Shown piece by piece: positions 13,955-47,264 of a stretch of 64,000 nucleotides of DNA. Location of the stretch: positions 640,001 through 704,000 of the forward strand of contig CAWJRG010000009.1 of assembly GCA_963845185.1 (NCBI GenBank), written 5' to 3'. The DNA is from an uncultured bacterium. Lineage in GTDB: Bacteria; Oederibacteriota; PGYV01; CAWJRG01. The translations under genes were made by a program, and so were the position numbers. The number at the start of each line of letters is the position of its first letter. Position 1 is the first letter of the stretch. The notes below the pieces were generated by a model. That model did no database searches and was not told the DNA's origin. It worked only from the letters and a program-made list of their open reading frames with translations.

Positions 13955-14116
13955 ATACCGCTTGTCCTTGGCTAAAGCCTCGGACTTGAGCGGCTTGACA
14001 GAGTTTGATTTTGCAAGCGTCAATAGCGAAGCAAAATCGTTACTCTGACATGTCCATGCAAAGCATGGAGTGAAAGATGTTTTGTTTGAGCCTGTTGACG
14101 GCTTGACAAAATAAAC
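13955..14116 (+). repeat. Two-hairpin dispersed element, copy with an internal insertion
   Basis: ATACCGCTTGTCC..GGACTTGAGCGG, about 80-nt insert, then GCCTGTTGACGGCTTGACAAAATAAAC. Confidence 0.75.
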
Positions 14117-14196
14117 TATGGGTAGTTTTTATATGATGATTTAAGGAAACTACCCGTCAAATAGTCCGCTGGACTATTTGACTAAAGGAGGCGGAA

Positions 14197-15324
14197 ATGA
14201 AAAAATTTTTAATCCCGGTATTGATTCTCGCAATGATTTTTATTACAGTTACCTGCGCGAAAAAGAAATCCTCACCGACTGCTCCTGCGCCGACAAATAC
14301 GCAGCAGCCTGCGCCTGTAAATACGGCAACCAATACTATAACCAATATTACGCTGACATTGACAATTACAAATACCTATACAAGTACCTCTTCTTATACG
14401 CCTACTTTTACCGTTACGTCGACGCCGACCGATACAGTGGTCCCTTGCTCCACATGGACACAGGCAATAACCGGCGCAAGTTTTTCCATCAGGCACAGCG
14501 CCACAAGCCTGGCATATAACAATTTAATGTGGGTAATAGGCGGATGGATATGCCCGAATACTACAAACGATGTCTGGTTCTCTTTGGACGGAATAAGCTG
14601 GTATAATGCAACAGCTTCTGCTTCATTTCCCATAAGGCACAACCACAACAGCGTAGTTTATAATAATGCAATGTGGGTTATTGCAGGATGGACTTCCGGC
14701 CCTCCCGCAAGTTATCTTAATGATGTTTGGTATTCCACAGATGGAACAAACTGGTACAGCGCAAATCCAGGCGCGCCTTTTTCGCCAAGGGAATTTTCTT
14801 CAAGTGTTGTATATAACAATTTAATGTGGGTTATAGGCGGATGGGCAAACAACGTTGATTATAACGACGTTTGGTGGTCCGCAGACGGCGTAAACTGGTA
14901 TTCCGCCACAAATAACGCGGAATTTTCACCGCGGCACGGCCATACCACTCTGGCGTATGACAATAAGATGTGGGTAATAGGCGGCCAGCAGGGAAGCAGC
15001 TTCAATAATTGCCTGAATGATGTGTGGTATTCAACAAACGGGATTTCATGGACACAGGCAAGTTCAGGCGGTTTCAGCGCAAGGATGGGGCATTCAAGCG
15101 TGGTTTATGACAACAGCATGTGGGTAATAGGCGGATTAGGCGTTACAGATTATAATGACATTTATTATTCATCGGACGGCGTCAGTTGGACACACATAGT
15201 GCCTTCTTCGGGCTTTCCTACGAGATACTATGCCGGTACCGTAGTCTTTAACAATAAAATCTGGGAAATTGCCGGCATGAACAATAGTGTTGAGTGCCTT
15301 AACGATGTCTGGTCTACACCATAA
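14197..15324 (+). CDS. Lipoprotein with Kelch-like/Asp-box repeats (paralog of 3141)
   Basis: VTCAKKK; Thr-rich linker; six 'MWVIGG..NDVWYS.DG..W' repeats. Confidence 0.85.
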   Translation: MKKFLIPVLILAMIFITVTCAKKKSSPTAPAPTNTQQPAPVNTATNTITNITLTLTITNTYTSTSSYTPTFTVTSTPTDTVVPCSTWTQAITGASFSIRHSATSLAYNNLMWVIGGWICPNTTNDVWFSLDGISWYNATASASFPIRHNHNSVVYNNAMWVIAGWTSGPPASYLNDVWYSTDGTNWYSANPGAPFSPREFSSSVVYNNLMWVIGGWANNVDYNDVWWSADGVNWYSATNNAEFSPRHGHTTLAYDNKMWVIGGQQGSSFNNCLNDVWYSTNGISWTQASSGGFSARMGHSSVVYDNSMWVIGGLGVTDYNDIYYSSDGVSWTHIVPSSGFPTRYYAGTVVFNNKIWEIAGMNNSVECLNDVWSTP

Positions 15325-15421
15325 AATTGTTTTTCGTTGAAAATTGAAAATTATTTGATTGCCGGATTTTGAGGTATGATAATGACTGGGAAAGATGATA
15401 AAACAACAAAAAGGACAGGTT

Positions 15422-16481
15422 ATGAAACCGGAAAAAAATAAAGACATTATCACGCAATCATATAAAAAGGCCATAAAGGATATAAAAAACAAGATACTGC
15501 GGGCGAGGCAAAACGCCGTTGTTTCGGTAAATAAAGAGCTTATATTTTTGTATTGGGAAATAGGGAATATAATACTTCAAAAACAGGAAAACGAAGGATG
15601 GGGCGCGAAAGTAATAGACAGGATGTCCACCGACCTGTCGCGTGAATTTGCCGATATGAAGGGTTTTTCTGTGCGGAACCTTAAATACATGCTCAAGTTC
15701 GCGGAAGAAAACAAGTACCGCGCAATTGTGCAACAGGTTGTTGCACAATTGCCATGGGGAAGCAATATCGTACTTCTGAATAAACTCAACAGCCAGGCCG
15801 ACAGGCTATGGTACGCGAAAAAAGCTATAGAAAACGGCTGGTCAAGAAATGTCCTTGCGCATCAGATAGAGTCCGGACTGTATAAAAGGCAGGTATCCGG
15901 AAGCAAGACGCATAATTTTCGCAAGACACTGCAGGGAACACAGTCCGACCTGGCTCATGAAACCATCAAGGACCCTTATATTTTTGACTTTTTAAATATG
16001 TCCGAACAGGTTTCTGAAAAAGAGCTCGAAACCGGGCTAATAAACCATCTCGCATCATTTTTGCTCGAACTCGGCAAAGGTTTTGCCTATGTCGGCAGGC
16101 AATACCATCTGGAAGCAGGCGGGGAAGATTTTTTATATAGACCTGCTTTTTTATCATCTTGAACTCCGCTGTTATGTTGCGATAGAATTAAAAACTGGAA
16201 AGTTTAAGCCCGAATATGCCGGTAAAATGAATTTTTACCTGACTGCCATAGACAGCCTGCTGAATAAACCCGGAGACAACCAGGCGATAGGCATAATACT
16301 ATGCAAGGACAAAAATAAAGTGATAGCAGAGTACTCGCTGCGCGATATAAAGAAACCGATAGGCATATCGGCGTATAAGACAGCAACAAAGATAAAAAAC
16401 AAACTGCCGGATATTAAAATAATGGAAAAAGAAATGGATAATTATTTACTTAAAGAAGAAGCGGCGAAATACGGGAAATGA
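15422..16481 (+). pseudogene. DUF1016/YhcG-family PD-(D/E)XK protein, one frameshift near 16130
   Basis: LYWEIG, GWGAKVI, KGFSVRNL, IKDPYIFDFL; continues in another frame as YIDLLFYH..IELK..FKPE.AGKMNFY; T6 where T5 restores frame (may be a sequencing error). Confidence 0.85.
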
Positions 16482-16515
16482 ATCCCGGAATGTTTTTTTA
16501 ATTGAAAATTGGAAA

Positions 16516-16611
16516 CTTATAGCGTTTATTTTGTCGAGCCAAAGGCGATAACAAAATATTACGCTATCAAGTACCCGCTCAAGTCTTGAGCTTGCGAAAG
16601 ACAAGAGGTAT
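16516..16611 (-). repeat. Two-hairpin dispersed element, reverse-oriented copy
   Basis: Reverse complement reads ATACCTCTTGTC..GACTTGAGCGGGTAC TTGATAGCGTAATATTTTGT..ACAAAATAAACGCTATAAG. Confidence 0.85.
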
Positions 16612-16684
16612 TGGGAATTATTAAAAGCCAAAGGAAAGTCCTGAGCCCAGCCCTGAGCTTGCCGAAGGGGATGGATTTTGAGGT

Positions 16685-17401
16685 ATGAGGATTATGAATA
16701 AAAATAACGATAACAAGACAAAAAGAGCTGATACAAGAGCCGCTGAAGCATGCAACATCAGCGGGATAGTAAAAGGGAAATCAGGCGATTTTAAAAGCGC
16801 CATCAGGGATTTTAACAAAGCCATAAAATACGACCCCGGATACGCGCCTGCTTACATCAACCGCGGCAACGCGAAATATTATCTTGCTGACTTTAAAGGC
16901 GCCATTGAGGATTGCATGCAGGCAATAGAGCTTGAACCAAGATCCGCGGCTGCTTATAACAACCTCGGCAATGCCAGAGGCGCTTTAGGCGATTGCAAGG
17001 CGGCGATTAAGGATTATGATAAGGCAATGGAACTAAACCCAAAGGACGCGGAATTTTGCTATAACCGGGGCACTGTTAAATATGCTTCAGGTGATTTTAA
17101 AGGCGCTATCGGGGATTGCAACAGGGCAATAGAATTAAATCCGGAATACGCGGATGCTTATAACAACCGGGCCACAGCAAAAGACAGGCTGGGCGACTTC
17201 AAAGGAGCAATTGAGGATTATACCAAAACAATCGGGCTAAAGCCGGAACTGGCCCGTGCTTACAGCAACCGCGGGCTCGTTAAAAATAAACTGGGCGATA
17301 AGCGGGGCGCGATTGAGGATTTAAACATGGCTGTGGAGCTTGGGGATACCGGAGCATATGAAATAATCAAGCAAATTGAGGGGAAATTGGATGGGAAATG
17401 A
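16685..17401 (+). CDS. TPR-repeat protein
   Basis: About six 'AY.NRG..K..LGDFKGAIEDY.KAIEL.P' repeats. Confidence 0.9.
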   Translation: MRIMNKNNDNKTKRADTRAAEACNISGIVKGKSGDFKSAIRDFNKAIKYDPGYAPAYINRGNAKYYLADFKGAIEDCMQAIELEPRSAAAYNNLGNARGALGDCKAAIKDYDKAMELNPKDAEFCYNRGTVKYASGDFKGAIGDCNRAIELNPEYADAYNNRATAKDRLGDFKGAIEDYTKTIGLKPELARAYSNRGLVKNKLGDKRGAIEDLNMAVELGDTGAYEIIKQIEGKLDGK

Positions 17402-17524
17402 ATCCCGGATTGTTTTAATGAATGCGCCGGGAATAATGTGTTTGGTGTTTTGAATCCCCGATACCGAACAGAGAATTTATGTTAAAATAAGTATTGAAAA
17501 TGAAAAAGTGACAGGAGAAAAACA

Positions 17525-18565
17525 TTGAAATCATTTATTAAAAAAGGTAGAGAGTTGTCGATACCGGCAGGCGCGGTATGGCTCATGAACGACATTTCCG
17601 AATTCAAGGGCAAACAGGAGCTTTACGCAAAGCAATCCCCGCAGGTTTTAAAGGCATTGATCGAGCGGGCTTTGATAGAAAGCGCGGAGTCTTCGAACAG
17701 GATAGAGGGAATAACAGTCGAGCATTCGCGCCTTAAACCGCTTGTGCTTCAGAACGCGAAGCCTAAAGACCGGTCAGAAGAGGAAGTTGCGGGATACAGG
17801 AAGGCGCTTGATTACATCCATAAAAATCACGCGTCAATAGAAATAACCCCTGATGTCGTAAAAGAACTTCATGCCATGGCGCAGGCCGGGGCGTGGGACG
17901 CGGGAAAATGGAAGGAAAAAGACAACGACATTATTAAAAAATATCCGGACGGCAGGAGCGAAGTAATATTCAGGCCTGTTTCCGCAAAAGATACGCCGGA
18001 GGCGATGAACAACCTTTGCAGGGCTTACTCTCATTCCGTGGACCAGTTAAAATACCCGCCGCTTTATGCCATATCCTGTCTTATCCTTGATTTCCTGAGC
18101 ATACACCCTTTCAGGGACGGCAACGGCAGGGTGTCGCGACTTCTGACGCTTCTTGCGCTTTATAAATATGGTTTTAACGTCGGCAAATACATAAGCCTCG
18201 AGCGCATTACAGAGGAATCAAAAGAAACATATTATGAAACTTTAAGTAAAAGTTCAGAGGGCTGGCATGAAGCAAAGCATGATGTGGAGCCGTGGCTGTT
18301 TTACTTCCTGGGTACGGTTTTGGCTGCTTACAGGGAATTTGAGCAAAGAGCGGGGAATGTTAAGGCCGCGCGCGGAGCGAAGACAGAGATGATAATAACG
18401 GCCATAAAGGAGTTTCCCGGAAATTTTAAAATAAGCGACATAGAACGCGCCTGCCCGTCTGTGAGCAGGGATATGATACGCACAATTTTAAGAAAATTAC
18501 AGAAAAACAAAGTCATAAAAAGCATGGGAAAGGGCCAATCTGCAGAGTGGAAACGAATAGGGTAA
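17525..18565 (+). CDS. Fic-family protein with C-terminal HTH
   Basis: HPFRDGNGRVSR catalytic motif; SNRIEG inhibitory-type motif; TTG start. Confidence 0.9.
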   Translation: MKSFIKKGRELSIPAGAVWLMNDISEFKGKQELYAKQSPQVLKALIERALIESAESSNRIEGITVEHSRLKPLVLQNAKPKDRSEEEVAGYRKALDYIHKNHASIEITPDVVKELHAMAQAGAWDAGKWKEKDNDIIKKYPDGRSEVIFRPVSAKDTPEAMNNLCRAYSHSVDQLKYPPLYAISCLILDFLSIHPFRDGNGRVSRLLTLLALYKYGFNVGKYISLERITEESKETYYETLSKSSEGWHEAKHDVEPWLFYFLGTVLAAYREFEQRAGNVKAARGAKTEMIITAIKEFPGNFKISDIERACPSVSRDMIRTILRKLQKNKVIKSMGKGQSAEWKRIG

Positions 18566-18832
18566 TAACCGCGTGAATGGGGTAATGAATGGGGTAATAA
18601 CATAAACGTGGTAATAAGTAGCCTGAACATAGTAATAAACGTGGCAATAACAAATAAACGCCTTAAAAATAAAGCAAATAATAGCTAAATAGGTAATATG
18701 TGTTTAATTAGGTATTTAATTAGGTGTTTTGAATCCCAAATCCGAGTTGGGTCAATTAATTGAGATTGACAATTGAGAATTGAAAATTTTTTGAATGCTG
18801 GATTTTGAGGTATAATGATTTAGGAGGAAAAA

Positions 18833-19636
18833 ATGAAAAATTGGCTAGTATTGCATGATATGTCAGCTTTTTCAACTCATCCAGATTATATTGGGAAAGA
18901 AGAAAGACAAGAAGGGAAAATTTCTAAAATTAAAAAGGGAGATAACGTTATTTATTATTGTACAGGTGATATGATAATAACAGGAATTTACAAAGTTGTT
19001 TCGGATTTGCAACATTGGAAAAAAGACCCGTTCTGGGAAGGTGGCCATGTTGTATATAAAATAAAACCGATTATTGAAGCACATGGGCCACAATATATTG
19101 GTTTAAATAACATGTTAAAAGAGATTTCTCTTAATGCATTCCCAAAGGGGAAAGTAGAAGGTATAAAACTTAAAGGCAGGACTGCTATTCCAATATCAAA
19201 GCATGATTTAAAAGCAATAGAAATGTATATAAAAAATTACAAAGGAAAATCAGAAAAATTATTTGCCGGAGTATCAAATGATGAAGGACTTGGGGAACCG
19301 ATGGAACTTGAGGTTATGGGCTATGCACCTACTTCAGAGGCAGGTGTTATTGTGTTGTTTGCTCATTTTTTAAAAAAACTCGGTTTTGAAAGGATTGAGT
19401 TTATTAGGGCTGGATTTCCGGATGCCTGTGTTCTTAAAAAAGTTGGCGAAAAATTTGAAAGAAAATATATTGAATTCGAATTTCAGTCTTCCTCTTTTAG
19501 AATTCATATTAAAAATCCCAAGCATAAGAATATTAAATGCGATTACATAGTATGCTGGGAAAATGATTTTATTAATTGTCCTGTACCTGTTATTGAATTA
19601 AAAACCGAATTGCAAAAATTAAGGATATTGAAATGA
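18833..19636 (+). CDS. EVE/PUA-like domain fused to a PD-(D/E)XK-like nuclease (candidate modification-dependent restriction enzyme)
   Basis: N-terminal 'KIKKGDNVIYY...ITGIYKVVSD'; C-terminal 'FPDA...IEFE..S..F..H...CDYIVCWEND'; AT-rich. Confidence 0.65.
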   Translation: MKNWLVLHDMSAFSTHPDYIGKEERQEGKISKIKKGDNVIYYCTGDMIITGIYKVVSDLQHWKKDPFWEGGHVVYKIKPIIEAHGPQYIGLNNMLKEISLNAFPKGKVEGIKLKGRTAIPISKHDLKAIEMYIKNYKGKSEKLFAGVSNDEGLGEPMELEVMGYAPTSEAGVIVLFAHFLKKLGFERIEFIRAGFPDACVLKKVGEKFERKYIEFEFQSSSFRIHIKNPKHKNIKCDYIVCWENDFINCPVPVIELKTELQKLRILK

Positions 19637-19728
19637 TTATAAAAATTTTTAAAAATCATTTCCAAACGTAAAGGATTTGATGAAAATACATTAATTTGAT
19701 AGAATGTAAACAAAAGTAAAGGAGCTTT

Positions 19729-21630
19729 ATGGACGGGAAATCGGAAGACGTGCTAAAAGACAGGATAAAAGAGCTGAAAAAGCTGTTCCCTGAAGCGGTG
19801 ACAGAGGGGAAAGTAGACCTCGAGATGCTCAAGGCAACACTCGGCGGGGAGATAAATACAGACAACGAGCGGTATGTGCTGAACTGGGCCGGGAAAGCAG
19901 AGGCTTTCCGCGTACTGCAGACGCCCACCACGGCCACGCTCGCGCTTGCGGAAAAAGAATCAATAAATTTTAACAATACTGAAAATATTTTTATCGAGGG
20001 GGAAAATCTTGAAGTCTTAAAAATCCTGCAAAAATCATATTACGGCAAAATAAAGATGATATATATAGACCCGCCGTATAATACCGGAAGCGACAGCTTC
20101 ATATATCCCGATAAGTTCGCGGAAAGCAAGGATGAATATTTGAAAAGGATAGGGGAAAAAGACGAGGAAGGATACCTGCTGAAAGAGGGGCTTTTCAGGA
20201 AAAACAGCAAGGAAAACGGCCAGTTCCACAGCGTGTGGCTGTCCATGATGTACCCGCGCCTTTTCCTCGCCCGCAACCTGCTCCGCGACGACGGCGTGAT
20301 ATTCATTTCCATAGACGACAACGAAGTGCATAATTTAAGAATGATGATGAATGAGATTTTTGGTGAGGAGAATTTTGTTGCTGTTTTTCCATGGCGCAAA
20401 AGGACAGCAAAAAGTGATGTACCATTTGGCGTTTCACAGGATTTTGAATGGATATTAATGTATGGGAAAGGTGATTTTTGGGCTGGATATTCCCTAGAAC
20501 GCAAATATTACAAATCAAAAGATTATAAAGACGGATGGAGACTAGCCGATTTAACAACACAAAGAACAAAGGAAGAACGACCTAATTCATTTTTCACCAT
20601 GATAAATCCAAAAGATAAGAAGAAGTACGAAGCCAATCCAAACAGAGTTTGGGGAGTTACCAAAGAAACTTTCAAAGATTACTATGAAAAAGGAAAAATT
20701 GTATTCCCGGGAGATTATGATTTTTTAAATATTTCAATACCTGCATTTAGAGTTTTTGAAAGCGAAGATAAGGAAAAGAATCTTAAAAAATTCGGTTCGG
20801 AAGAAGCTTTCCGAACGGTATCAACTTTATTACCTCCGGATATTGGCAGGACAGAGGACGGCACTAAAGAAATTACCGAACTTTTTCAGAGTAAAGTATT
20901 CTCATTTCCTAAACCACAATCATTAATTAAGTATTTGATTAGCATAATACCTGAAAACGATTTTACGATTTTAGATTTTTTTGTCGGATCGGGAACAACC
21001 GCACATGCAACTTTTGAACTCAATAAAGAAGATGGCGGACAACGTAATTTTATTTGTATTCAATTACCGGAAAAGACAACAGAAGACACTGAAGCACTTA
21101 AAGAAGGATATAAAACTATCGCTGAAATCGGTAAAGAGCGCATACGCAGGGTAATAAAGAAAATAAAGGAAGAAAAGAAAAGCAATCCTGACCTTTTTTC
21201 CAAAGACAAGCCTGAACTTGACCTTGGATTTAAGGTATTCAAACTTAAAGAATCAAACTTTAAAGTCTGGCGGAGTGATGTGGTGGAGAATGAAAAGGAT
21301 TTAAACAGGCAGATGGAGATATTCCAGGAGCCTGTCAAACCAGGCGCGGAAATGAATAATATGATGTGGGAACTGCTGGTAAAAAACGGGTATGAACTGA
21401 CGACAAAGGTAGAAGAACGGGAACTCGCCAAATGCCCGTGTTTCGTCGTCGCCGAAGGCGAACTTATTGTCTGCCTCTCCAAACTCACTGAAACCGCAGT
21501 CAAAGAGATTTTGAAGCTGAAACCAAAGAAAGTCATCTGCCTTGACTCTCTCTTTGAGCGTAACGATAAGCTGAAAACCAACACCGCCCTGCAAATGAAA
21601 GACGCAGGGGTGGAGTTGAAGACGATATGA
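19729..21630 (+). CDS. mod: Type III restriction-modification methyltransferase
   Basis: IEGENLEVLK, IYIDPPYNTG, HS.WLSMMYPRL, FPKP, LDFFVGSGTTAHA, DLGFKVFKL. Confidence 0.93.
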   Translation: MDGKSEDVLKDRIKELKKLFPEAVTEGKVDLEMLKATLGGEINTDNERYVLNWAGKAEAFRVLQTPTTATLALAEKESINFNNTENIFIEGENLEVLKILQKSYYGKIKMIYIDPPYNTGSDSFIYPDKFAESKDEYLKRIGEKDEEGYLLKEGLFRKNSKENGQFHSVWLSMMYPRLFLARNLLRDDGVIFISIDDNEVHNLRMMMNEIFGEENFVAVFPWRKRTAKSDVPFGVSQDFEWILMYGKGDFWAGYSLERKYYKSKDYKDGWRLADLTTQRTKEERPNSFFTMINPKDKKKYEANPNRVWGVTKETFKDYYEKGKIVFPGDYDFLNISIPAFRVFESEDKEKNLKKFGSEEAFRTVSTLLPPDIGRTEDGTKEITELFQSKVFSFPKPQSLIKYLISIIPENDFTILDFFVGSGTTAHATFELNKEDGGQRNFICIQLPEKTTEDTEALKEGYKTIAEIGKERIRRVIKKIKEEKKSNPDLFSKDKPELDLGFKVFKLKESNFKVWRSDVVENEKDLNRQMEIFQEPVKPGAEMNNMMWELLVKNGYELTTKVEERELAKCPCFVVAEGELIVCLSKLTETAVKEILKLKPKKVICLDSLFERNDKLKTNTALQMKDAGVELKTI

Positions 21631-22442
21631 AGGAGTTAATAAATATAGTAAATACGAAATATAAAGAATTTGATATAAATAAATTAGATTATAATAAACC
21701 GTATTTTATTGTTTCTCCAAAAGACGATCTGGAAGGAATAATTTTGGAGAATGAAACAATTATGTTAAAATATAAAGAAATGTTTTCGTTTAAAATGCCA
21801 ACTGGTAATATTTGTAATTTAAGACAATGGATAATTTTATATAACAAAGATATAAACGATATAACATATTTTAGAAATTATTTCTATGATAACAATTGTA
21901 ATCCATATGCAATAGCTATGCTGTTTAAATATTTGCGTTATAATGTTAAAGAATTAACAAATTTAACGCAATTTCCACCATTGAATTTTAAAAAAACTAA
22001 AGAAGAACAATCAAATGCAATGGATCTTGTTATACAAAAGGCTGAACCTTCGGATTTAATATTTGTATATGATAGAAAAAGTGGAATTTCTAAGTATATT
22101 AGAAAAATAGATAGATGTATGTGGTCGCATTGCGGGGGAATCAATATGAATAAAGAAATTATTGAAATGACAACTGCCGGAATTAGAAGGGGTAGTTTTG
22201 AAGAATATAGAAATGAAAATATAGATTTAGGATTGTATAGATTGAAACAACAAATTTCATTTGAGAGTAAGGAAAAGATGCATGATTTTTCAGAAGATAA
22301 ATTAAGGAAACAAACAAGATATAACTGGAAGGGTGTTGTTAAACTTTATTTGAAAAAGAAATTTAAAATTCCTATTGACGCAGGTCCGTCCCCGGCGGAT
22401 ATAATATACGGTAATAAATTGCAATTAATTGCATATGCATAA
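21627..22442 (+). CDS. Permuted papain-like (YiiX/YaeF, NlpC/P60-related) domain protein
   Basis: 'PSDLIF...ISKYIR..D...WSHCG', 'RYNW', 'SPADII'; no CSE-type catalytic Cys motif seen; ATGA overlap with mod. Confidence 0.55.
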   Translation: MKELINIVNTKYKEFDINKLDYNKPYFIVSPKDDLEGIILENETIMLKYKEMFSFKMPTGNICNLRQWIILYNKDINDITYFRNYFYDNNCNPYAIAMLFKYLRYNVKELTNLTQFPPLNFKKTKEEQSNAMDLVIQKAEPSDLIFVYDRKSGISKYIRKIDRCMWSHCGGINMNKEIIEMTTAGIRRGSFEEYRNENIDLGLYRLKQQISFESKEKMHDFSEDKLRKQTRYNWKGVVKLYLKKKFKIPIDAGPSPADIIYGNKLQLIAYA

Positions 22443-22499
22443 TAGTTATATATCCATATCGCTCTTTGAACAAATCAATGAAGAGTGAGGTTGCGGACA

Positions 22500-23745
22500 A
22501 TGATTGAAAGAGAAGATTTAAAGGATATTAAAAATACAGTTGCTCATTTAAATGATTTAGCTAAAGTTTTTCACAAATTTAATGTAGAAGATTGGTCAAT
22601 ATTATGGTATGCCCGTAATAAACGCGCTGGTGAAAGTCTTGAAAATCTATACTTTGTAAAAGATAAGGATTTCATTAATGCTGTTGAAAGTGTTTATCGT
22701 GAAGGAAGACAAATAGCCGTAGATTTATCATATGATTTACCGCTCATTGATCAAATCGAAGTTTTCCCTAAGATATTCTAATTATTTAGATCATATGAAT
22801 AATTATTTTGACTTAGTTGATAAAATTGCACCCGAATTTTTAAAATGGGAACAAATAATTAATGCGAAAAGGGATTATGAAGTAGATTATGGCGCGATTG
22901 ACGATATGATAAAACTTTTTAAAGCACAGTTAAATTTAATAAAGGGTTTAAAAAATGATTTTGAAAATATTAAGAACTCAGAAAGATTTAAAATTGAAAA
23001 CGATTCAAAAATAATTGAAAATGTACAAAATACAAATCAAAATAATAAATCTTTAATTTTTATAAGTTATAATGTAATTGATAAAGTAATTGCGGGTGAA
23101 ATATTTGACTTTTTGAATACTTTTTTTGAAGTTTTTTTAGCTCATGAAAAAATTAAATCCGGCGTTGATTGGCAAGAGGAGATAATACTTAATTTACAAA
23201 AAGCAGATATATTTATGCCTATTATAACTAAATCATTCAAACAGTCGGATTGGACTGATCAAGAATGCGGAATTGCATATTTATTAGCAAATTTAAAAAA
23301 CACAAAAATACTTCCGCTTAATAAACCACAATCACATAAAAAAAATCTTCCATATGGATTTATAAGTAAATTTCAATCTTTTCCTTTTACTGATATGAAA
23401 AAACAAGAAGAGCAGATTGAATTTTTTGCAAAATTATTAGAATTAATCAATAAAAACGAAAAAAAACGTTTATTTGATTTGCTTGTTTTAAAACTTACAG
23501 GATGCAATACAAAAAACGACTGTACAAAATATACAAGAATGCTATTACACTTTGATATAACAGAATATAGACTTAATAAGATTTTTGAAGCTTTTAGCAT
23601 GGATATTAGTAAAAAATATTCTAAAAGTATAATAAAAATATTTGAGGATTTTATTAAAAACAAACATATCGAATTTTTAGATAAATTTAAAAAATTCAAA
23701 GCTTCTATTTTTAAACAAATTAGCATAAAAAATGGTAAAACATGA
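22500..23745 (+). CDS. TIR-domain protein, probably one gene split by a frameshift near 22770 (ORFs 22485-22781 and 22732-23745)
   Basis: IFISY..D...A..I, VFLAHEKIKSGVDWQEEI...L, SDWTDQECG (catalytic-type Glu); very AT-rich. Confidence 0.75.
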
Positions 23746-23786
23746 AACTACATTTTGATTCCAATCAGGCATATCAATTAGAGGCG
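23742..23786 (+). repeat. Truncated copy 1 of the res 5' end (MKLHFDSNQAYQLEA)
   Basis: ATGAAACTACATTTTGATTCCAATCAGGCATATCAATTAGAGGCG, compare 27679-27723. Confidence 0.9.
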
Positions 23787-23956
23787 GCTGGAAAAGACCG
23801 TGGTGAGTGCGACGTGGGACGTGGAACGGAAAATATAAACATTCGGAATTCGGGATTTGGAATTTGGTATTCGGGATTTGGGATTTGAAAGACACATTCA
23901 GCGTTTGGTATTCAAGAATTTGAATCCGGAATTCCAAATGCAGAATCGGAGTTACA

Positions 23957-25399
23957 ATGACAAAAAAGGAATTAATCAATAAAATCCAGGACATAGAGTG
24001 GGAGGATTTTGAAGTAAAAGAGGCAGCGGGAGGTTTGCCTAAATCCTCATGGGAGACTGTGAGCGCTTTTGCGAATACCGCCGGCGGGTGGATTGTATTC
24101 GGAGTTTCCGGCATGGGCTCAAAATACGCGATTACCGGAGTGGATAAGCCCGGGAAACTGGAGCAGGACTTTTTAAACACCCTTCGCGGGGATAAATTTA
24201 ACAGGAAAATCAGCGTTAAGTGCAAAAAATATAAAATTGAGGATAAAACCGTACTGGGATTTTACGTACCTTCGGCGCAGGGCAAAGACAAGCCGGTCTA
24301 TTTTAATTCCAAGGCAAATACTTTCATAAGGACAGGAAGCGGCGACCAGCGGGCGACAAGCGAAGAGATAGACGCCATGTACAGGAACTCTTCTTTCGAC
24401 AAAAAAGACGAGCAGCCGACGCGCTTTACGATAAAAAGCCTTGATGCCCGTACGATAGAACGCTTCAGGACATATCTGAAAAACATAAATCCCGGGCACA
24501 GATATAACAGCTTAAAAAATGAGGAATTTCTTGAAAAGCTGAGGGCGGTTTCACGGGGCAGGGTGACAATAGGCGGGCTTTTGTTTTTTGGGAAAGAAGA
24601 AAGCATAAGCGAATATGCGCCGGATTTCAGGATAGATTATCTGGAGATTTCCGGGACATCATACGGGGACGCGCCGGAACGCTACAGCTACAGGCTTCCT
24701 GAGGAAATCAATATTTTTAATTATTATTTCGCCGTAATGGACAGGCTGATGAGAAAAATAGATATTCCTTTCAAACTCAAAGGAATGGCAAGGGACGAAA
24801 ACCCGCCGCAGTTGACCGCGATAAGGGAAGCGCTTGTAAACCTGCTGATGCACAGCGATTATTTCAGCGGCGCAAAGCCGAGGATAAGGGTATTCACCGA
24901 CAGGATAGAGTTCTTTAATCCAGGCTCTTTGCCGAAAGAGATAAAATACATTTTAAAGGAAGATTTTTCGCTTCCGAGAAACCCGACCATAGCCAGGTCG
25001 TTCAGGATGGTACAGCTTGCCGAAAGCATAGGCTCGGGATTTTATAAAATGATAAACGGCTGGAAATCCTACTACAAAATAAAACCTGAAATAACAGGCG
25101 ATTTTGATTATTATAAAATCGTATTTAAATTTGAATCCGCGGCTGATGATGCTGTAAATGTCCCTGTAAATGTCCCTGTAAATGCCCCTGTAAATGCCCC
25201 TGTAAATGCCCCTGTAAAAAGATTGGAAATGATAGTAGAACAAATGAAAGTTAACGACAGGATAACATTTGTGCAATTAGCAAAGTTTCTTAAGGTAGAT
25301 GTGACTACAATAAGGCGAAATGTCTCAAAATTGAAAAATGAGGGGCGAATAAGGAGAATAGGGCCGGATAAGAACGGAAGATGGGAAGTGCTTAAATGA
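23957..25399 (+). CDS. AlbA_2/Schlafen-like domain, RecG-C-like ATPase region and C-terminal HTH
   Basis: E...FEVKEA, WETVSAFANT.GG.IVFGV, AIREALVN.L.H.DY, RIEF.NPG, RNP.IA; 12-bp repeat before the HTH. Confidence 0.85.
   Translation: MTKKELINKIQDIEWEDFEVKEAAGGLPKSSWETVSAFANTAGGWIVFGVSGMGSKYAITGVDKPGKLEQDFLNTLRGDKFNRKISVKCKKYKIEDKTVLGFYVPSAQGKDKPVYFNSKANTFIRTGSGDQRATSEEIDAMYRNSSFDKKDEQPTRFTIKSLDARTIERFRTYLKNINPGHRYNSLKNEEFLEKLRAVSRGRVTIGGLLFFGKEESISEYAPDFRIDYLEISGTSYGDAPERYSYRLPEEINIFNYYFAVMDRLMRKIDIPFKLKGMARDENPPQLTAIREALVNLLMHSDYFSGAKPRIRVFTDRIEFFNPGSLPKEIKYILKEDFSLPRNPTIARSFRMVQLAESIGSGFYKMINGWKSYYKIKPEITGDFDYYKIVFKFESAADDAVNVPVNVPVNAPVNAPVNAPVKRLEMIVEQMKVNDRITFVQLAKFLKVDVTTIRRNVSKLKNEGRIRRIGPDKNGRWEVLK
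25152..25218 (+). repeat. In-frame 12-bp tandem repeat (CTGTAAATGYCC, 5.5 copies)
   Basis: Encodes VNVP/VNAP repeats. Confidence 0.9.
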
Positions 25400-35711: not shown

Positions 35712-35936
35712 GCGGGTTTACAAAATAAACGTTATACAAACACCTCTTGTCCGCGGCAGTAGCCTCGGACTTGAGCGGGTGTAAGCAAGAGTAATATTTT
35801 GCTGCACCCTGCGGGTTTACAAAATAAACGTTATACAAACACCTCTTGTCCGCGGCAGTAGCCTCGGACTTGAGCGGGTGTAAGCAAGAGTAATATTTTG
35901 CTGCACCCTGCGGGTTTACAAAATAAACTCTTGCTT
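35712..35936 (+). repeat. Exact 99-bp tandem duplication giving two copies of the two-hairpin element
   Basis: 35712-35810 equals 35811-35909; final stem AAGCAAGAGT/ACTCTTGCTT abuts AGGAGG. Confidence 0.9.
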
Positions 35937-35948
35937 AGGAGGACTATC

Positions 35949-36203
35949 ATGGCAGGAAAAAATATTACTTTCACACTAAAACTCGACAAGGATATAAGGA
36001 GCCTTTTGAAGGATTTTTGCGAATCAAGGGGGCTTCTTATGAACAGTTTTGTGGAGCGGGCCATAATCGATGAAATCGAAAAGGAAGAGTTAAAAGAAGA
36101 CCTGGCCGCAATACAGCATTACGAGAAATTTGAGCGGGATTCCACGATACCGCTCGATAAGGTTGCTGAAGAGCTGAATTTTTATGCCAAAAAGAAGAAA
36201 TAA
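35949..36203 (+). CDS. Probable RHH-type antitoxin
   Basis: ITFTLKLD beta-strand, acidic C-terminus, directly upstream of RelE. Confidence 0.75.
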   Translation: MAGKNITFTLKLDKDIRSLLKDFCESRGLLMNSFVERAIIDEIEKEELKEDLAAIQHYEKFERDSTIPLDKVAEELNFYAKKKK

Positions 36204-36205
36204 CC

Positions 36206-36478
36206 GTGTATAAGCTGGAACTATCAGCCACTGCTTACAGGATATTAAAGTCAAAAAAACTCATTCCGAAAGACAACGCTGCAATAAAAGACAGGATTTT
36301 AAGCCTGCAGAACGACCCGCGATCACCCGGCTGCGAGAAACTGAAGGGTTTTGACAAAAACTATTACAGGGTCAGGCAGGGCAATTACAGGATTGTTTAT
36401 GAGATAAAAGACACAGAGAAAATAGTGGCAATAGTTTTCATAGGGCACAGGCGGGATGTGTACGGAAAAATCGGGTAA
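36206..36478 (+). CDS. RelE/ParE-family toxin
   Basis: PR..GCEKLKG...YRVRQGNYRIVYEI....IGHRRDVY. Confidence 0.92.
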   Translation: MYKLELSATAYRILKSKKLIPKDNAAIKDRILSLQNDPRSPGCEKLKGFDKNYYRVRQGNYRIVYEIKDTEKIVAIVFIGHRRDVYGKIG

Positions 36479-36578
36479 GTAAATAGTAAAGCTCAAAAGT
36501 TCAAGGTTCAAAGTTCAAGGCGGTAACAGTTGAACAGTAGAACAGGTGAGATAAGAAAGGTTCAATTCTCAATTGTCA

Positions 36579-36678
36579 ATACCTCTTGTCTTTTGCAGGC
36601 TCAAGACTTGAGCGGGTACTTGATAGCGTAATGTTTTGCCTTTGCCTGTTGACGGCTCGGCAAAACAAACGCTATAAG
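36579..36678 (+). repeat. Two-hairpin dispersed element
   Basis: ATACCTCTTGTC..GACTTGAGCGGGTAC; ATAGCGT-AA-TGTTTTGCC..GGCAAAACA-A-ACGCTAT. Confidence 0.88.
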
Positions 36679-36845
36679 TTTTCAATGAATTTGATTCAGT
36701 AATTTGGGATTTTGGATTTGGGATTGAAAAATACATGAGACATGCGCAGGGGCCTGTCTCTGCGAAAGACAAACGATATAAGTTTTCAATTGACGTGAAA
36801 CTTATTTTGATTGATAATCAATAATCAGGAACCGGAAATAAATTG

Positions 36846-36944
36846 ATACCGCTTGTCGGGATAAAACCCTGACTTGAGCGGGTACATGATTTCGTAATAC
36901 TTTGCCGGCGCCTATTGACGGCTTGGCAAAGTAAACTAAATCAA
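36846..36944 (+). repeat. Two-hairpin dispersed element directly before an RBS
   Basis: ATACCGCTTGTC..GACTTGAGCGGGTAC; TGATTTCGT-AA-TACTTTGCC..GGCAAAGTA-A-ACTAAATCA-AGGAGG. Confidence 0.88.
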
Positions 36945-36954
36945 GGAGGCAGTC

Positions 36955-37710
36955 ATGAAAAAAGTCTTAATCCCAGCATTAATTTTAATTGCAATTTTAT
37001 TTGCAATCACATGTTCAAAAAAGAAATCCTCGCCCGCAGCGCCTGAGGCGACATCAACAACGGCGCCCGCAAACACTGCTGCTATGACAGCCACAACGCA
37101 GGCTACAGCTACGGCAACAACAGTTAAAACAGCGACAGCCACAGAAACCATAGTAGTGGCGCTGACAGCTACTGAAACTTCGGTAATATCACCGACAGCC
37201 AGCGTTACGATCACAATCACGCTGACAAGCACTGCCTCGCCTACAATAACCCTGACGCCGTGCCCGGGCCTGTCTTTTGGGAACATGGGGTCGTATGATC
37301 TTGATAACAACGCCCTGCAGCTTACATTTAACTCGGCATATACAATCTCAGCTCCGGTCAAGCTTATAGGGTTCAGCTACTATGTGGGTGAAATACCGTC
37401 AAATGGCGTGGCGCTCATGTGCGACTCAAGCGGAAATGTAATTGCGGAGTCGCCGGTGACAGCAGCAACAAGCACCGGCTGGCTGAATGTAACCGTAATA
37501 CCGGTCGAACTGGCTGCAGGCTCGTATTATCTCGGGGTAGACTCGGATACGCTTGGAGGCACAACCGGCTCAAACGGCGGGTCAACATGGGGGCCGACAC
37601 CGCCGTCATCGCTCACCACCATACCAACGTCATTTATCTTTGATATCTATAACATGGGACAGGGCAGCGGCTGGACAATGAATGTGGAAGCGATATGCAC
37701 GTGCCCGTAA
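36955..37710 (+). CDS. Lipoprotein with Thr/Ala-rich linker
   Basis: MKKVLIPALILIAILFAITCSKKKSSP. Confidence 0.8.
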   Translation: MKKVLIPALILIAILFAITCSKKKSSPAAPEATSTTAPANTAAMTATTQATATATTVKTATATETIVVALTATETSVISPTASVTITITLTSTASPTITLTPCPGLSFGNMGSYDLDNNALQLTFNSAYTISAPVKLIGFSYYVGEIPSNGVALMCDSSGNVIAESPVTAATSTGWLNVTVIPVELAAGSYYLGVDSDTLGGTTGSNGGSTWGPTPPSSLTTIPTSFIFDIYNMGQGSGWTMNVEAICTCP

Positions 37711-37817: not shown

Positions 37818-37921
37818 ATACCTCTTGTCCGGGTAGTTTTTATATTAAATGAATTATGGATACTACCCGTCAAATAATCCACAGGATTATTTGACTGAAT
37901 GCTCAGGACTTGAGCGGGTAC
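37818..37921 (+). repeat. Hairpin 1 of the dispersed element with a second palindromic module nested in its loop
   Basis: ATACCTCTTGTCC[GGGTAG..CTACCC GTCAAATAATCC-ACA-GGATTATTTGAC]..GGACTTGAGCGGGTAC. Confidence 0.8.
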
Positions 37922-43188: not shown

Positions 43189-43851
43189 ATGGAACAGCAA
43201 ATAATACAGAAAATCGCGGGAAAAAGGGGCATAAGCCCGGACGCGGTTGTCAGGGAGTACTACGAATACCTGCTCCTGCGTGAGCTTTATGAGAGCCCCG
43301 TCGGCGACGGCCTGGTTTTCAAGGGAGGCACCGCGCTGCGCGTTTTTTACGGCCTGCCCAGGTACTCCGACGACCTTGATTTTGAAATGACGAAAAAATT
43401 CGGGTTTGCAGCTTTTTCCGGCGCAATAAAGGCCGCGGCAGGCAAATTTGAAAACATGAAAATAACCGACCTGTGGGGAAAAAATTACACATACATATGC
43501 GAGATAAAGGCTACCGAGACATGGCTTAAAATGCCTTTCTCAATCAAAATAGAGGTCTCCAAGCGGCCTGCGGCAAAGGGACGGGAATCCGAGCTCAAAA
43601 TGGCTGCGTCCGGGGATTTCGGCATACAGGCGTTCGGCAGGGTTTTGACCCTCGACTCGCTTTATGAGGACAAAAAAGCAGCCATAGCGGGCAGGGATGA
43701 GCCAAAGGATTATTTTGACATGTGGTACATCTGTCAGGTGAAAAAGGTGCCTTTTACGCCGGGTAAAAAGCCGGATAAAAAAAGGTACAGGCAGGTGCTG
43801 GGAAAATACCTGCCCAGGCAGTACCTGAAAGTGCTGGATGAGATACTGTGA
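43189..43851 (+). CDS. AbiEii-family nucleotidyltransferase toxin
   Basis: LVFKGGTALR.FYGLPRYSDDLDF; K..A...R..PKDYFD. Confidence 0.9.
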   Translation: MEQQIIQKIAGKRGISPDAVVREYYEYLLLRELYESPVGDGLVFKGGTALRVFYGLPRYSDDLDFEMTKKFGFAAFSGAIKAAAGKFENMKITDLWGKNYTYICEIKATETWLKMPFSIKIEVSKRPAAKGRESELKMAASGDFGIQAFGRVLTLDSLYEDKKAAIAGRDEPKDYFDMWYICQVKKVPFTPGKKPDKKRYRQVLGKYLPRQYLKVLDEIL

Positions 43852-44441
43852 ATACAATAACACTTTTGAAAAAACTCGGGGACATAGGCAAGGGGTATTA
43901 CACGCCGGCCGATATAGGCAAGATAACAGGGCTGTCAGGCGGCGCGCTCAAGGTCAGGCTGAACAGGCTGATAAAATCCGGCATAATAGAGCGGCTTAGC
44001 CGCGGAATGTACGGCGTGCCGGGAATGAAGACAGACACAGAGCGCGCGGCAAACGATGCGGTGTACCCGTCATACATATCTTTTGGCTCGGCGCTGTCAA
44101 AGTACGGCGTGATAAGCGAAGTGCCGTACGTACTGGAGTTTGCCACCACAAAAGGGACGAGGAAGAAACAAATAGGGGGCATGGACGTCCTGTACAGGAA
44201 ACTGCAGAAGAAACTTTTTTTCGGTTATACCATGTCAAACGGCGTGATGATAGCTGAGCCGGAAAAGGCAGTGCTGGACATGGTATACCTGAAAGCCGCG
44301 GGAAAATACGCCGGAAATGAGGCGGAAAAGCTTGACCTTAGAAAGCTGGACATGAAGAAACTTAAAAAGTACGCGATGAGATTCCCAGCAAAGGCCAGGG
44401 CAGCCCTTGAGGCTGTGACTGGCTTGCGGATAAAAAGATAA
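43848..44441 (+). CDS. AbiEi-family antitoxin
   Basis: wHTH 'RLNRL.K.G.IERL.RG.Y', SYISF.SAL..YG.I, IAEPEKA.LD. Confidence 0.85.
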   Translation: MNTITLLKKLGDIGKGYYTPADIGKITGLSGGALKVRLNRLIKSGIIERLSRGMYGVPGMKTDTERAANDAVYPSYISFGSALSKYGVISEVPYVLEFATTKGTRKKQIGGMDVLYRKLQKKLFFGYTMSNGVMIAEPEKAVLDMVYLKAAGKYAGNEAEKLDLRKLDMKKLKKYAMRFPAKARAALEAVTGLRIKR

Positions 44442-44500: not shown

Positions 44501-44655
44501 TAACGCTTGTCCGGATAGAACTCGGACTTGAACGGGGTTAATAAATTCTCAATTAAAAATTGTCAATGTTAAATTAAGGTATTTAATTGATAACTGCGAA
44601 TTGATAATTGAAAATTAACGGAAGTTGACGGCTTGGTAAAACAAACGATCTTAAG
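44501..44655 (+). repeat. Two-hairpin element disrupted by an AT-rich heptamer tract
   Basis: CGCTTGTCC..GGACTTGAACGGG, insert, GTTGACGGCTTGGTAAAACAAACG then RBS. Confidence 0.7.
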
Positions 44656-44667
44656 GGAGACTTCATC

Positions 44668-46356: not shown

Positions 46357-46385
46357 TTGATTTTAGTAATATTTTACGATATAAT
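46357..46385 (+). promoter_or_regulatory. Sigma70-type promoter of the 46615 gene pair
   Basis: TTGATT-17 nt-TATAAT. Confidence 0.7.
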
Positions 46386-46406
46386 TTAGTTAAGAAAATA
46401 ATGAAC

Positions 46407-46602
46407 TACCGCTTGTCCGGGTAGAACCCGGACTTGAGCGGGTACATGATTCCGTAATACTTTACCAGCGCCTGTTGACGGCTTGGTAAAGTAAACGAAA
46501 TTATAAGTACCTCTTGTCCCTCATAAACTCGGGACTTGAACGGGTACTTGATCTCGTAATGTTTTATCATCGCTTTCAGCTTGATAAAACAAACGATCTC
46601 AA
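46407..46602 (+). repeat. Two tandem, diverged copies of the two-hairpin element (46407-46503, 46508-46602)
   Basis: Stems TACTTTACC/GGTAAAGTA and TGTTTTATC/GATAAAACA; second copy ends at AAGGAGG. Confidence 0.88.
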
Positions 46603-46614
46603 GGAGGTGTTCAT

Positions 46615-46851
46615 ATGAGCACGATAACTTTAACTTTAAAGATCGACAAGGCTAAGAAAAAGGCTGTTTATGATTTTTGCCACGAGCAGGGGCTGATGGT
46701 GAACAAGTTTTTTGAAAAAGCCGCTGAAAACGAGATAGAAAGGCATCTTTTAAACGAAAGCACGAATGTATTCGCCAATTATGAAAAACGCAAAAAAACT
46801 GCTGTTGATTTCGACCGGGTTGTGAAACTAATAAAAGCAAAGAAAAAATAG
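46615..46851 (+). CDS. Probable RHH-type antitoxin (paralog of 35949)
   Basis: ITLTLKIDK...DFC...GL..N.F.E.A...EIE aligns with the 35949 protein. Confidence 0.7.
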   Translation: MSTITLTLKIDKAKKKAVYDFCHEQGLMVNKFFEKAAENEIERHLLNESTNVFANYEKRKKTAVDFDRVVKLIKAKKK

Positions 46852-46854
46852 CGT

Positions 46855-47154
46855 ATGCGCATAGTACTTATGATGCTTGAGTTTTTGAAAAAATTCCTGT
46901 TATTATCCGGCAGGGAACAAAAAATAATAACCCATATCAGGGCTGACATAGGCCGTAAGCGGGAATTTAACAGGAACGAGGGGTTTGTCAGGATGCAGCC
47001 CGGAAACCTGAAAAGCGCGCAGGGATTTGTATATGAGCCTTCGCTTGATATCAGGCTGAAGAAACTCAGGCTTACCGGCCCGTATTTCAGAATATGGTTT
47101 ACAGCCGAAAAAAACGGGGATGTTTATTTTGTTGATTTTGAAAAACTTGATTAA
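46855..47154 (+). CDS. Putative toxin, divergent RelE-like
   Basis: 99 aa, basic, 'KKLRL...FRIWF', downstream of an antitoxin-like gene. Confidence 0.5.
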   Translation: MRIVLMMLEFLKKFLLLSGREQKIITHIRADIGRKREFNRNEGFVRMQPGNLKSAQGFVYEPSLDIRLKKLRLTGPYFRIWFTAEKNGDVYFVDFEKLD

Positions 47155-47165
47155 AATAATTAACA

Positions 47166-47264
47166 ATACCGCTTGTCAGGATAAAACCCTGACTGGAACA
47201 GGTACATGATTTCGTAATACTTTGCCAGCGCCTGTCGACGGCTTGGCAAAGTAAACGAAATCAA
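47166..47264 (+). repeat. Two-hairpin dispersed element directly before an RBS
   Basis: TGATTTCGT-AA-TACTTTGCC..GGCAAAGTA-A-ACGAAATCA-AGGGAGG. Confidence 0.88.

Follow-up and report, generated by a model that had tools for sequence, protein, structure and literature searches.

The window analysed here is a 64-kb stretch of the genome of an uncultured bacterium (G000), and a 33-kb region within it, flagged by a first-pass annotation of the sequence, is dotted with copies of an element of ~100 nt that folds into two hairpins. Sequence reading and an alignment of 11 window copies (A1) confirmed the layout and the motifs that the annotation had described. Hairpin 1 is made up of (A)TACC(G/T)CTTGTC, a variable self-complementary insert and GACTTGAGCGGGTAC; hairpin 2 consists, in order, of an outer stem, GTAAT, an inner stem, an apical GCC..GGC, the returning inner stem, AAAC and the returning outer stem. 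Of the ~100 columns of A1, 36 are invariant, and the conserved letters are those of internal loops and junctions, not of stems. The two ends of the element are unrelated to each other in this alignment, and no terminal inverted repeats were found in it. The core motif CTTGAGCGGGTAC, with three mismatches at most, occurs 26 times against a mean of 10.2 in shuffled sequence; 26 was reached in none of 100 shuffles, so the pattern exceeds chance.

By covariance model and sequence reading, 11 copies in the window are full and one is degenerate, and several more are partial (Table 1). The annotation's count of about 13 understates the family, which extends over the whole genome. The sites at 37818, 44501, 35411, 36770 and 50930 that it listed are partial copies or fragments.

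Table 1. Copies and remnants of the two-hairpin element in the 64-kb window. Coordinates from the covariance model (CM) R1, which was built from the window alignment including flanks, extend beyond the element by ~5 nt on the 5' side and ~12 nt on the 3' side.
Position	Strand	Feature	Evidence
13951..14066	+	Degenerate copy; hairpin 1 intact, hairpin 2 diverged	CM R1 33.6 bits, E 1e-6
16501..16615	-	Full copy, the sole minus-strand copy of the window; subfamily then AAGTTTCCAATTTTCAAT, without SD	CM 115.6 bits
31471..31585	+	Full copy, then AAGTTTTCAATTTTCAATG; ATG at ~31580 opens a 132-codon frame without classical SD	CM 114.9 bits
34419..34522	+	Tandem pair, upstream member; ends ..ATCAAG, next copy directly 3'; identity to tandem neighbour 0.74, the level of random pairs	CM 73.9 bits
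34523..34640	+	Full copy abutting AAGGGAGG and ATG 34638 of HTH gene, then Fic/Doc gene	CM 105.5 bits
35411..35455	+	Fragment, like degenerate hairpin 1	sequence reading only
35736..35834	+	Identical tandem pair (local duplication), upstream member; identity 1.0 to neighbour	CM 77 bits
35835..35951	+	Full copy abutting TTAGGAGG and ATG 35949 of DUF6290 antitoxin-like gene, then ParE	CM 102.8 bits
36575..36693	+	Full copy, AAGTTTTCAAT subfamily; no gene start adjacent	CM 110.3 bits
36770		Fragment	sequence reading
36842..36959	+	Full copy abutting AAGGAGG and ATG 36955 of 251-aa signal-peptide protein	CM 106.8 bits
37818..37925	+	Hairpin 1 alone, split by 77-nt nested repeat at 37830-37906; no hairpin 2	sequence reading
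44501..44667	+	Disrupted copy; after a degenerate hairpin 1 and an AT-rich filler of ~80 nt, the 3' half of hairpin 2 abuts AAGGGAG and ATG at 44668	sequence reading
46402..46501	+	Tandem pair, upstream member; copy common to metagenome relative L178 (90% identity)	CM 92.4 bits
46503..46617	+	Second copy, other subfamily, between first copy and SD/ATG at 46615	CM 108 bits
47162..47279	+	Full copy abutting AAGGGAGG and ATG 47279 of TPR protein	CM 109.2 bits
50937..51015	+	Remnant: nested-repeat copy, then 3' arm of hairpin 1 (GGACTTAAGCAGG)	

The stems vary in sequence and keep their pairing. RNAalifold predicted 31 pairs from the 11 window copies, 15 of them with compensatory double changes. 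At pair 16-37, for instance, nine of the 11 copies have UA and two have CG, which is the change from GTC/GAC to GCC/GGC reported by the annotation for the copies at 34424 and 34528. The pairing statistics were extended to 61 model-aligned copies, 53 of them distinct, from G000 and its relatives. Changes on both sides were found at 25 of the 31 pairs, and standard pairs occupied 93.7% of cells, compared with 39-44% after the 3' partners were slid by 1-3 columns; none of 500 column shuffles reached the observed measures, a large margin for an alignment that was fitted to the model and so favours structure. The covariation of the stems indicates that a single-stranded fold has been under selection, as the annotation had proposed. 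One pair of hairpin 1 is U.G in 46 of 49 rows, where the other strand would have an A.C mismatch, a hint that it is the sense strand that folds. The AA/A internal loop had been called constant; this holds for the window copies, in which GTAAT/AAAC is invariant, but not for relatives, which have GUAAA or GUAAG with UAAC. Searches of Rfam 15 with the whole window at the gathering score returned group II intron models only and left the element unmatched, and permissive searches (31-48 kb at E<=1; one copy at E<=10) gave chance-level matches far below gathering, in agreement with the earlier view that it is not a known riboswitch or ribozyme.

The family is spread throughout G000 (assembly of 3.5 Mb in 11 contigs, 99.4% complete). 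An nhmmer profile made from 10 window copies gave 177 matches, and the covariance-model search of genome and relatives that the annotation had suggested found at least 145 copies (150 of ~2,600 first-look candidates were scored). Copies lie on seven of the 11 contigs, including all the large ones, and with these numbers the flagged 33-kb region is no more than a local concentration of a family found throughout the genome. Forty other genomes were sampled: the 23 that belong to the same order include 11 with 1-17 copies each, and none of the 17 that belong to other orders of the phylum has the element. When 185,579 species genomes were scanned for an exact pattern, true copies turned up only in three relatives of the same order, one of them labelled 'candidate division FCPU426', besides some ten chance matches in unrelated phyla. 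A scan of viral contigs gave 0 copies and blastn against plasmids and phages no match; of 50 loci picked out by a pattern scan in metagenome contigs, 43 hold the element. The element is confined to one order of an uncultured phylum. It was undescribed in literature searches on the phylum and on structured interspersed repeats near ribosome-binding sites, and also in the main text of a genomic paper on the phylum (PMC7031533; supplements lay outside the search), where 'repeat' occurs only in methods wording.

Many copies stand in one fixed position relative to a gene. Among the 135 copies of G000 that retain the 3' half, 88 are followed directly by a Shine-Dalgarno (SD) core, a start codon 6-17 nt on and an open reading frame (ORF) of at least 50 aa, a context found at 2.7% of 5000 random positions; the earlier remark that many copies end just before the SD of unrelated genes is thus borne out. 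The remaining 47 are mostly upstream members of tandems or arrays, copies with a weaker SD, or members of a subfamily that is followed by AAGTTTTCAATTTTCAAT. Information content rises abruptly at A-R-[T/C]ACC, the 5' limit of conservation, and at the 3' side conservation takes in the six-base outer stem, two to four A/T bases and GGAG before it collapses. The orientation and downstream genes were tabulated, as had been suggested: the orientation of the element follows that of the gene, its sense strand being in fixed register with the SD, and the genes, named from N-terminal sequences and Pfam, are unrelated (metK, argG, rplC, atpA, murC, fabD, gatC, pyrB, ilvD, glpK, secG and metG; also ~31 signal-peptide proteins, lipoproteins and small antitoxin-like genes). 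A GGAGG core precedes 57% of element-bearing genes and 27% of all long genes, a difference that is partly circular because an SD-like motif was required in selecting the 88 genes. To judge from the same literature, the family appears to be undescribed, and a preference for the SD edge appears not to have been described for small bacterial mobile elements.

Two other accounts were rejected. A replication-strand bias independent of genes was not borne out, 7 of the 88 element-bearing genes lying on the locally minor strand compared with 14.9% of all genes (p = 0.07). Mimicry of the anti-SD by the 5' end (ACCTCTT, set against the 16S tail) would require a T that is present in only 23 of 113 copies, G being found in 65 and A in 24. 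As to gene strands in general, ~85% of crude gene calls in G000 are on the locally major strand, and a switch on contig C9 at ~710-800 kb suggests an origin or terminus there. The subfamily that has AAGTTTTCAATTTTCAAT(G) in place of an SD occurs in the window at 31571-31595, 36675-36692 and 16501-16520(-), and elsewhere in G000 at C5:32929, C5:35395 and C1:208370; the ATG at 31580, which opens a frame without SD, lies inside this motif.

Comparison of occupied and empty sites showed what is gained when the element is present. In the S10 operon, the rpsJ-rplC spacer measures 116 nt in G000, where it contains the element; in all 22 relatives that have the two genes together at this locus, it is 11-33 nt long, little more than xGGAGGxxxx. 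The atpH-atpA spacer of the ATP-synthase operon measures 113 nt in G000, and its length is 15-57 nt in the 19 relatives for which a positive gap could be measured (two further relatives gave negative gap estimates and two were without one of the genes), and the element was detected in G000 only. The opposite state was found in metagenome relatives, many of whose element loci are syntenic to G000 at 72-92% identity. At five of them (L158, L186, L157, L201 and L155; 76-92% identity), both flanks align and the element is present in the metagenome relative and absent from G000. In each of the five pairs the insert begins at TACC, ends 1-2 bases beyond the outer stem and is followed immediately by AGGAG(G). 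The two alleles share their SD core at four of these loci (AGGAGG in L158, L186 and L157; AGGAG in L155), the whole stretch through the start codon is identical at L158 (AGGAGGACTTACATGAG), and the spacers at L186, L157 and L155 are alike but not identical. All seven comparisons, the two operons and the five metagenome pairs, thus put the element immediately before (A)GGAG(G). The junctions show no target duplication, the dinucleotides of the 5' flank and the 3' end are uncorrelated, and the AT-rich upstream flanks are native sequence.

The same sites appear to have been used repeatedly. At L178, the relative has a single copy, 90% identical to the first member of the window pair at 46402-46501, and G000 adds the second copy between it and the SD. 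Tandem neighbours at seven loci are 0.65-0.76 identical, and random pairs have a median of 0.72; that neighbours are no more alike than random pairs fits repeated independent hits on one site. Local duplication accounts for one identical pair and for an array of seven copies (0.92-1.0). At two of seven orthologous sites the two genomes carry different subfamilies, which indicates turnover.

Other short repeats lie in or beside the element. A second repeat of ~75 nt also has two hairpins, GGGTAG..CTACCC and then CAAATAGTCC..GGACTATTTG, and occurs in the window at 37830-37906, 14120-14186 and 50937-50978. Among its copies in G000, 43 have a length of at least 60 nt, and 32 of these are no more than 120 nt away from the two-hairpin element. 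Those examined follow TTTG(Y)(Y) in the loop of either hairpin, and from these positions the repeat appears to nest in the element. A conserved motif CCCGC..CGCGAAAA.CCCGCC.GTAGAGGCGGGGAT.GATAGCGCT.CGG stands directly 5' of the element at five loci of G000 (C9:528159, C9:532504, C9:918633, C9:907470 and C6:76380), three of which belong to a ~430-bp repeat.

The context of the element changes in a sister family of the same order (f10; genomes G014, G020, G023 and G019). There, an A-run, a GC-rich hairpin and a T-run lie directly 3' of 16 of the 21 copies with a 3' half; three others are tandem and two have other contexts, and none of the 21 stands before an SD. The terminator hairpins are copy-specific in sequence, and the neighbouring gene usually converges on the element, which indicates that the terminator is that gene's own. 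In G001, which belongs to another family, three of four copies have the SD context. Metagenome relatives gave 25 copies of SD type, six tandem, six of terminator type, six others and one too short; five of the six terminator-type copies came from the same assembly as G014. It is the same element with a lineage-specific landing site, and at both types of site the sense strand starts with a purine tract, either AGGAGG or an A-run followed by GG.

Starting from the observed fold, spread, exact junctions, polymorphism and lineage-specific context, we lean, on balance, towards regarding the element as a non-autonomous selfish mobile element whose hairpins are recognised in trans and which is directed to the 5' edge of a purine-rich signal and tolerated there. 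By analogy with the ends of IS200/IS605 elements, REPs and attC sites, the two hairpins would be the recognition structure for a trans-acting enzyme working on a folded single strand, and this enzyme would join the element beside a purine-rich motif (AGGAGG, or an A-run and then GG). In G000 it would be pasted in sense orientation directly 5' of the (A)GGAG(G) SD core of ~90 unrelated genes, and so be carried along as an mRNA leader or intercistronic spacer. The site may be tolerated because the SD is as accessible as in other genes: its predicted unpaired probability is 0.50 with the element (n = 87) and 0.44 in controls (n = 150; p = 0.09), so that the element neither hides the SD nor clearly frees it. 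Structure would be selected in active source copies and not at each resident locus. We infer the enzyme, the strand on which it would act and the precedence of targeting over selection. Of the two possibilities raised by the first-pass annotation, a cis-regulatory RNA or a single-stranded-DNA mobility site, mobility is favoured because of the presence/absence polymorphism with exact junctions, the distinct subfamilies, the tandems of unrelated copies, the nested insertions and the lack of a common function among downstream genes. A dedicated cis-regulatory RNA is unsupported, since SD accessibility is unchanged, orthologous copies have more broken than compensated pairs, and f10 copies lie before terminators.

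Several results weigh against this account. GU and AC mismatches are equally frequent (30 and 35), so that neither strand is singled out as the one that folds. SD variants correlate with subfamily, for example ..CAAGGGAGG and ..CTCTAAGGAG, and at L201 the two alleles differ both in the SD (AGGGAGG and AGGAGG) and in the spacer; part of the SD may thus travel with the element. The best identity of a copy to any copy elsewhere is 85-93% for 77 of 114 copies and reaches 97% or more for only four, all of which sit in larger duplicated segments. This spectrum indicates that most copies are old, not young, which bears on current activity. PF01797 (Y1 transposase) had 0 matches in G000, the genome with most copies, in a search to which control genomes responded; Y1 genes, among them genes for ~330-aa proteins in G001 and G014, are carried by 15 of 24 genomes of the order, and their number is unrelated to that of element copies; the 10 Y1 loci inspected in relatives have no element nearby. 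On the sense strand, the conserved target is at the 3' side of the element, which fits the IS200/IS605 scheme only if the bottom strand is the active one (CTCCT|). Finally, the strict sense orientation and the location inside mRNAs also fit a role at the RNA level.

Other candidates for a mobilising activity were sought. A search for IS91-type Y2 enzymes gave no match in G000, the control genomes being silent too. PF01548 (IS110-family) had seven matches in G000. A link to these was rejected, as the element does not resemble the four identical IS copies, whose insertion site is a different palindrome. These 1288-bp IS110-family insertion sequences lie at C1:323041, C5:335702, C9:330368 and C10:445859; a third repeat, the palindrome CACCCTCACCC..CTCTCCCGTC(A/G)A|GGGAGAGG, adjoins three of them, and the fourth (C1) has a different left flank, a similar palindrome being present at C1 ~222,350. 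An autonomous version with a gene between the hairpins was also rejected, the one split copy enclosing a fatty-acid-desaturase-like gene and not a transposase. In that copy (L208, C10:624292-625716), 1.3 kb separate the outer stem from the interior of hairpin 2, and the gene encodes a membrane protein with histidine-box motifs. No excess of 5'-truncated copies was seen in the nhmmer match list. A link to a group II intron resident in the window was rejected as well, since the covariance model run over the intron with filters off gave at most 5.4 bits (E>=0.59).

This intron runs from 59945 to ~61853 with a reverse transcriptase ORF at 60392-61804. Six further copies are found in G000 (C1:269894, C9:813074, C9:846914, C10:385218, C10:831397 and C11:63444), and the reverse transcriptase genes are identical in six of the seven. 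The 5' end of the intron directly follows GGAGG-N5-6-ATGA, that is, an SD and a start codon plus one base, in seven of seven copies, and from the sequences its homing site appears to be a translation start. The window copy seems to interrupt codon 2 of a signal-peptide gene with an FGE-sulfatase domain: if its flanks were joined at the putative 3' splice site, ATGA|AAAAAAATC.. would read MKKILIS...

A bolder form of the mobile-element account is that the ribosome-binding site itself is the attachment site, with a hairpin-recognising or nucleic-acid-guided enzyme pasting the element at the 5' edge of AGGAGG and, in the sister lineage, at the edge of the terminator A-tract. We offer this only tentatively and think it rather less probable than its converse. 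The homing of the intron to GGAGG-N5-6-ATGA and the nesting of the 75-nt repeat in the loops of the element would both fit it. If true, translation and transcription punctuation would serve as preferred safe havens for a layered community of small mobile elements in this phylum, and a new target-selection mechanism would be indicated.

The element is almost certainly transcribed in G000 and, once transcribed, may have a side effect at the RNA level. It is a serious, if unlikely, alternative that it is a functional leader or intercistronic RNA module, kept after its spread because transcribed hairpins are useful near a ribosome-binding site. They might block 5' or 3' exonucleases, insulate the SD, or allow cleavage by a double-strand RNase in the asymmetric AA/A loop and thereby uncouple cistrons; phage T7 RNase III sites and the effects of REP and ERIC sequences on mRNA offer analogues. 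The strict sense orientation in fixed register with an SD that is not occluded, the copies inside essential operons, the near-invariant U.G pair, which would be A.C on the other strand, and the conservation of the internal-loop GTAAT/AAAC and CTTG..TTGAG across families of the order all speak for such a module. Against it, the downstream genes share no function, the gain in SD accessibility is not significant, and rplC and atpA do without the element in 22/22 and 19/19 relatives. Seven orthologous pairs of copies showed 15 single pair-breaking changes and three broken doubles against 10 pair-keeping changes and 11 compensated doubles, with 0.126 substitutions per paired nt and 0.183 per unpaired nt; in this small sample, constraint on the element in place is at most weak. 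Tandem arrays of up to seven copies and nested insertions would be unexpected of a tuned leader, and the f10 copies, which converge on the neighbouring gene and stand before terminators, never before an SD, also speak against it.

The terminators of f10 also raise the question of a multicopy small-RNA gene, an ancestral stand-alone unit with its own promoter and terminator that was later fused to mRNA leaders in the G000 lineage. We regard this as improbable. Besides the terminator-like sequence after 16 of 21 copies, it would account for f10 5' flanks that often read TATTATA or ATTATATTA and end a few bases before TACC, for ~45 nt of upstream sequence shared by one subfamily, for the f10 flanking genes being on the other strand, and for the enrichment of -10-like hexamers 2-6 nt upstream in G000 (29 of 153 at offset 6, compared with ~6 per offset farther upstream). 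The terminators, however, differ between copies with the same 5' extension and belong to the convergent neighbour, so that they are pre-existing sites that lie outside the unit. The idea that the element brings a promoter at its 5' edge was rejected, a full sigma-70-like site being found upstream of only 12 of 153 copies in G000 and the AT-rich flanks being native in filled/empty pairs. An internal sigma-70 promoter (TTGAGC, 15-16 nt, TAATAT) was rejected too: it agrees at 8 of 12 positions at most, is unlisted by the promoter scan and is not kept in relatives.

Spread without any enzyme, by template switching or gene conversion between ribosome-binding regions, with AGGAGG as microhomology and the hairpins as stalling points, is less probable still. 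It would be in keeping with the lack of a transposase linked to the element, with junctions that always fall at a motif common to all sites, with the correlation of SD variants and subfamily, and with the replacement of one subfamily by another at the same site. Yet the 5' junction is sharp without homology to the target, more than 100 independent events with identical ends would be unusually many for illegitimate recombination, and in the f10 lineage copies with the same ends occupy a different kind of site.

That the copies are attC sites of an integron, in a chromosomal-integron-like cassette array, can be dismissed, in line with the annotation, which did not recognise the element as an attC site: the region at 14-47 kb does hold Fic/Doc, ParE, AbiE, TIR and restriction-modification genes nearly all on one strand, and the element shares with attC a premium on the folded single strand over sequence, an asymmetric unpaired spacer and a place before unrelated promoter-less genes, but it has two hairpins, whose outer ends do not pair together, lacks RYYYAAC / GTTRRRY boxes (R''/R', AAC..GTT; R/L), joins at the AGGAGG of an SD and not at a GTT core, and is dispersed, not arrayed, over all large contigs and before housekeeping genes, so that genome-wide dispersal and the lack of core sites refute the idea, the integron integrase itself not having been searched for. 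The genes in question form a defence and toxin-antitoxin island, almost all on one strand, at ~15,400-31,300, 34,600-36,500 and 43,190-44,440 of the window. They include a DUF1016/YhcG nuclease, Fic, EVE, an N6/N4 methylase, TIR, Schlafen/AlbA_2, RhuM, a type III restriction helicase-endonuclease, HTH with Fic/Doc, DUF6290 with ParE, and AbiEii/AbiEi.

Among known systems, the ends of IS200/IS605 elements, their gene-less derivatives (PATEs) and REPs mobilised by RAYT (Y1 HUH) carry subterminal imperfect hairpins with covarying stems, and IS200/IS605 elements insert 3' of their target. Like PATEs and REPs, the present element is small and non-autonomous, has covarying subterminal hairpins without terminal inverted repeats or target duplication, inserts strand-specifically beside a short motif and is found in many intergenic copies. 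A fixed AGGAG adjoins it, but follows it on the sense strand, which would agree with the insertion of PATEs 3' of a fixed tetra- or pentanucleotide only if the bottom strand is active; G000 lacks TnpA, which 15 of 24 genomes of the order have without correlation to copy number. The REP/RAYT arrangement of a Y1 gene flanked by the repeats is not seen. Unlike those of IS200/IS605, its two hairpins are dissimilar and its target is a ribosome-binding site on the 3' side of the sense strand. Unlike in IS608, the foot of the hairpin is only 2-4 nt from the junction, too close for a guide segment of that type to fit in between. The terminal inverted repeats and target-site duplication of classical MITEs (Correia, RUP) are lacking. 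MIRUs (mycobacterial interspersed repetitive units), which carry small coupled ORFs and are not hairpin elements, resemble it in being short repeats in intercistronic operon spacers that follow gene orientation; the present element differs in being non-coding and structured and in ending precisely at the SD. In group IIC introns the insertion point follows a terminator hairpin. Like them, and like the resident intron, the element has a 'safe' transcription or translation signal as its landing site, but it has no ribozyme domains, no Rfam match and no similarity to the resident intron. The features of a cis-regulatory leader are not found in it either, the 88 genes being unrelated, the SD lying outside the hairpins and its accessibility equalling that of controls.

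In appearance, the closest likeness is to co-transcribed repeats. A study of the repeats of Streptococcus pneumoniae (PMC3049150) places BOX, RUP and SPRITE on the leading strand in only ~61-63% of cases, with enrichment between convergent genes. BOX and RUP have inverted terminal repeats and target duplications. BOX/RUP/SPRITE and the ERIC/BIME repeats of enterobacteria are lineage-restricted, ~100 nt long and partly modular, with conserved stem-loops and tandem copies, are co-transcribed with their neighbours and have no known dedicated transposase, and in all this the present element resembles them (PMC3049150). It differs from the pneumococcal repeats in its sense orientation at the SD (88/135), and inverted repeats and duplication were not found. 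The element is one that works most like PATEs of the IS200/IS605 type and REPs, looks most like co-transcribed repeats of the BOX/ERIC type, and departs from each of them in testable features.

The leaders of ~3% of the genes of this organism, a member of an uncultured phylum, have been rewritten by the element, whichever of targeting or selection placed it there. Interspersed repeats of small size are usually regarded as settling where they do the least harm, for instance 3' of genes or between convergent ones. The present family differs in that its junction, in seven independent filled/empty comparisons, is the 5' edge of the SD core, even inside the S10 and ATP-synthase operons. If targeting is the cause of this position, there must be an enzyme or guide able to read AGGAGG (or a purine tract) beside a folded hairpin, and it would have a new, possibly programmable, specificity. 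If it reflects selection, the element would be a natural portable insulator before ribosome-binding sites. In either case, it will mislead the prediction of gene starts, operons and non-coding RNAs in these genomes.

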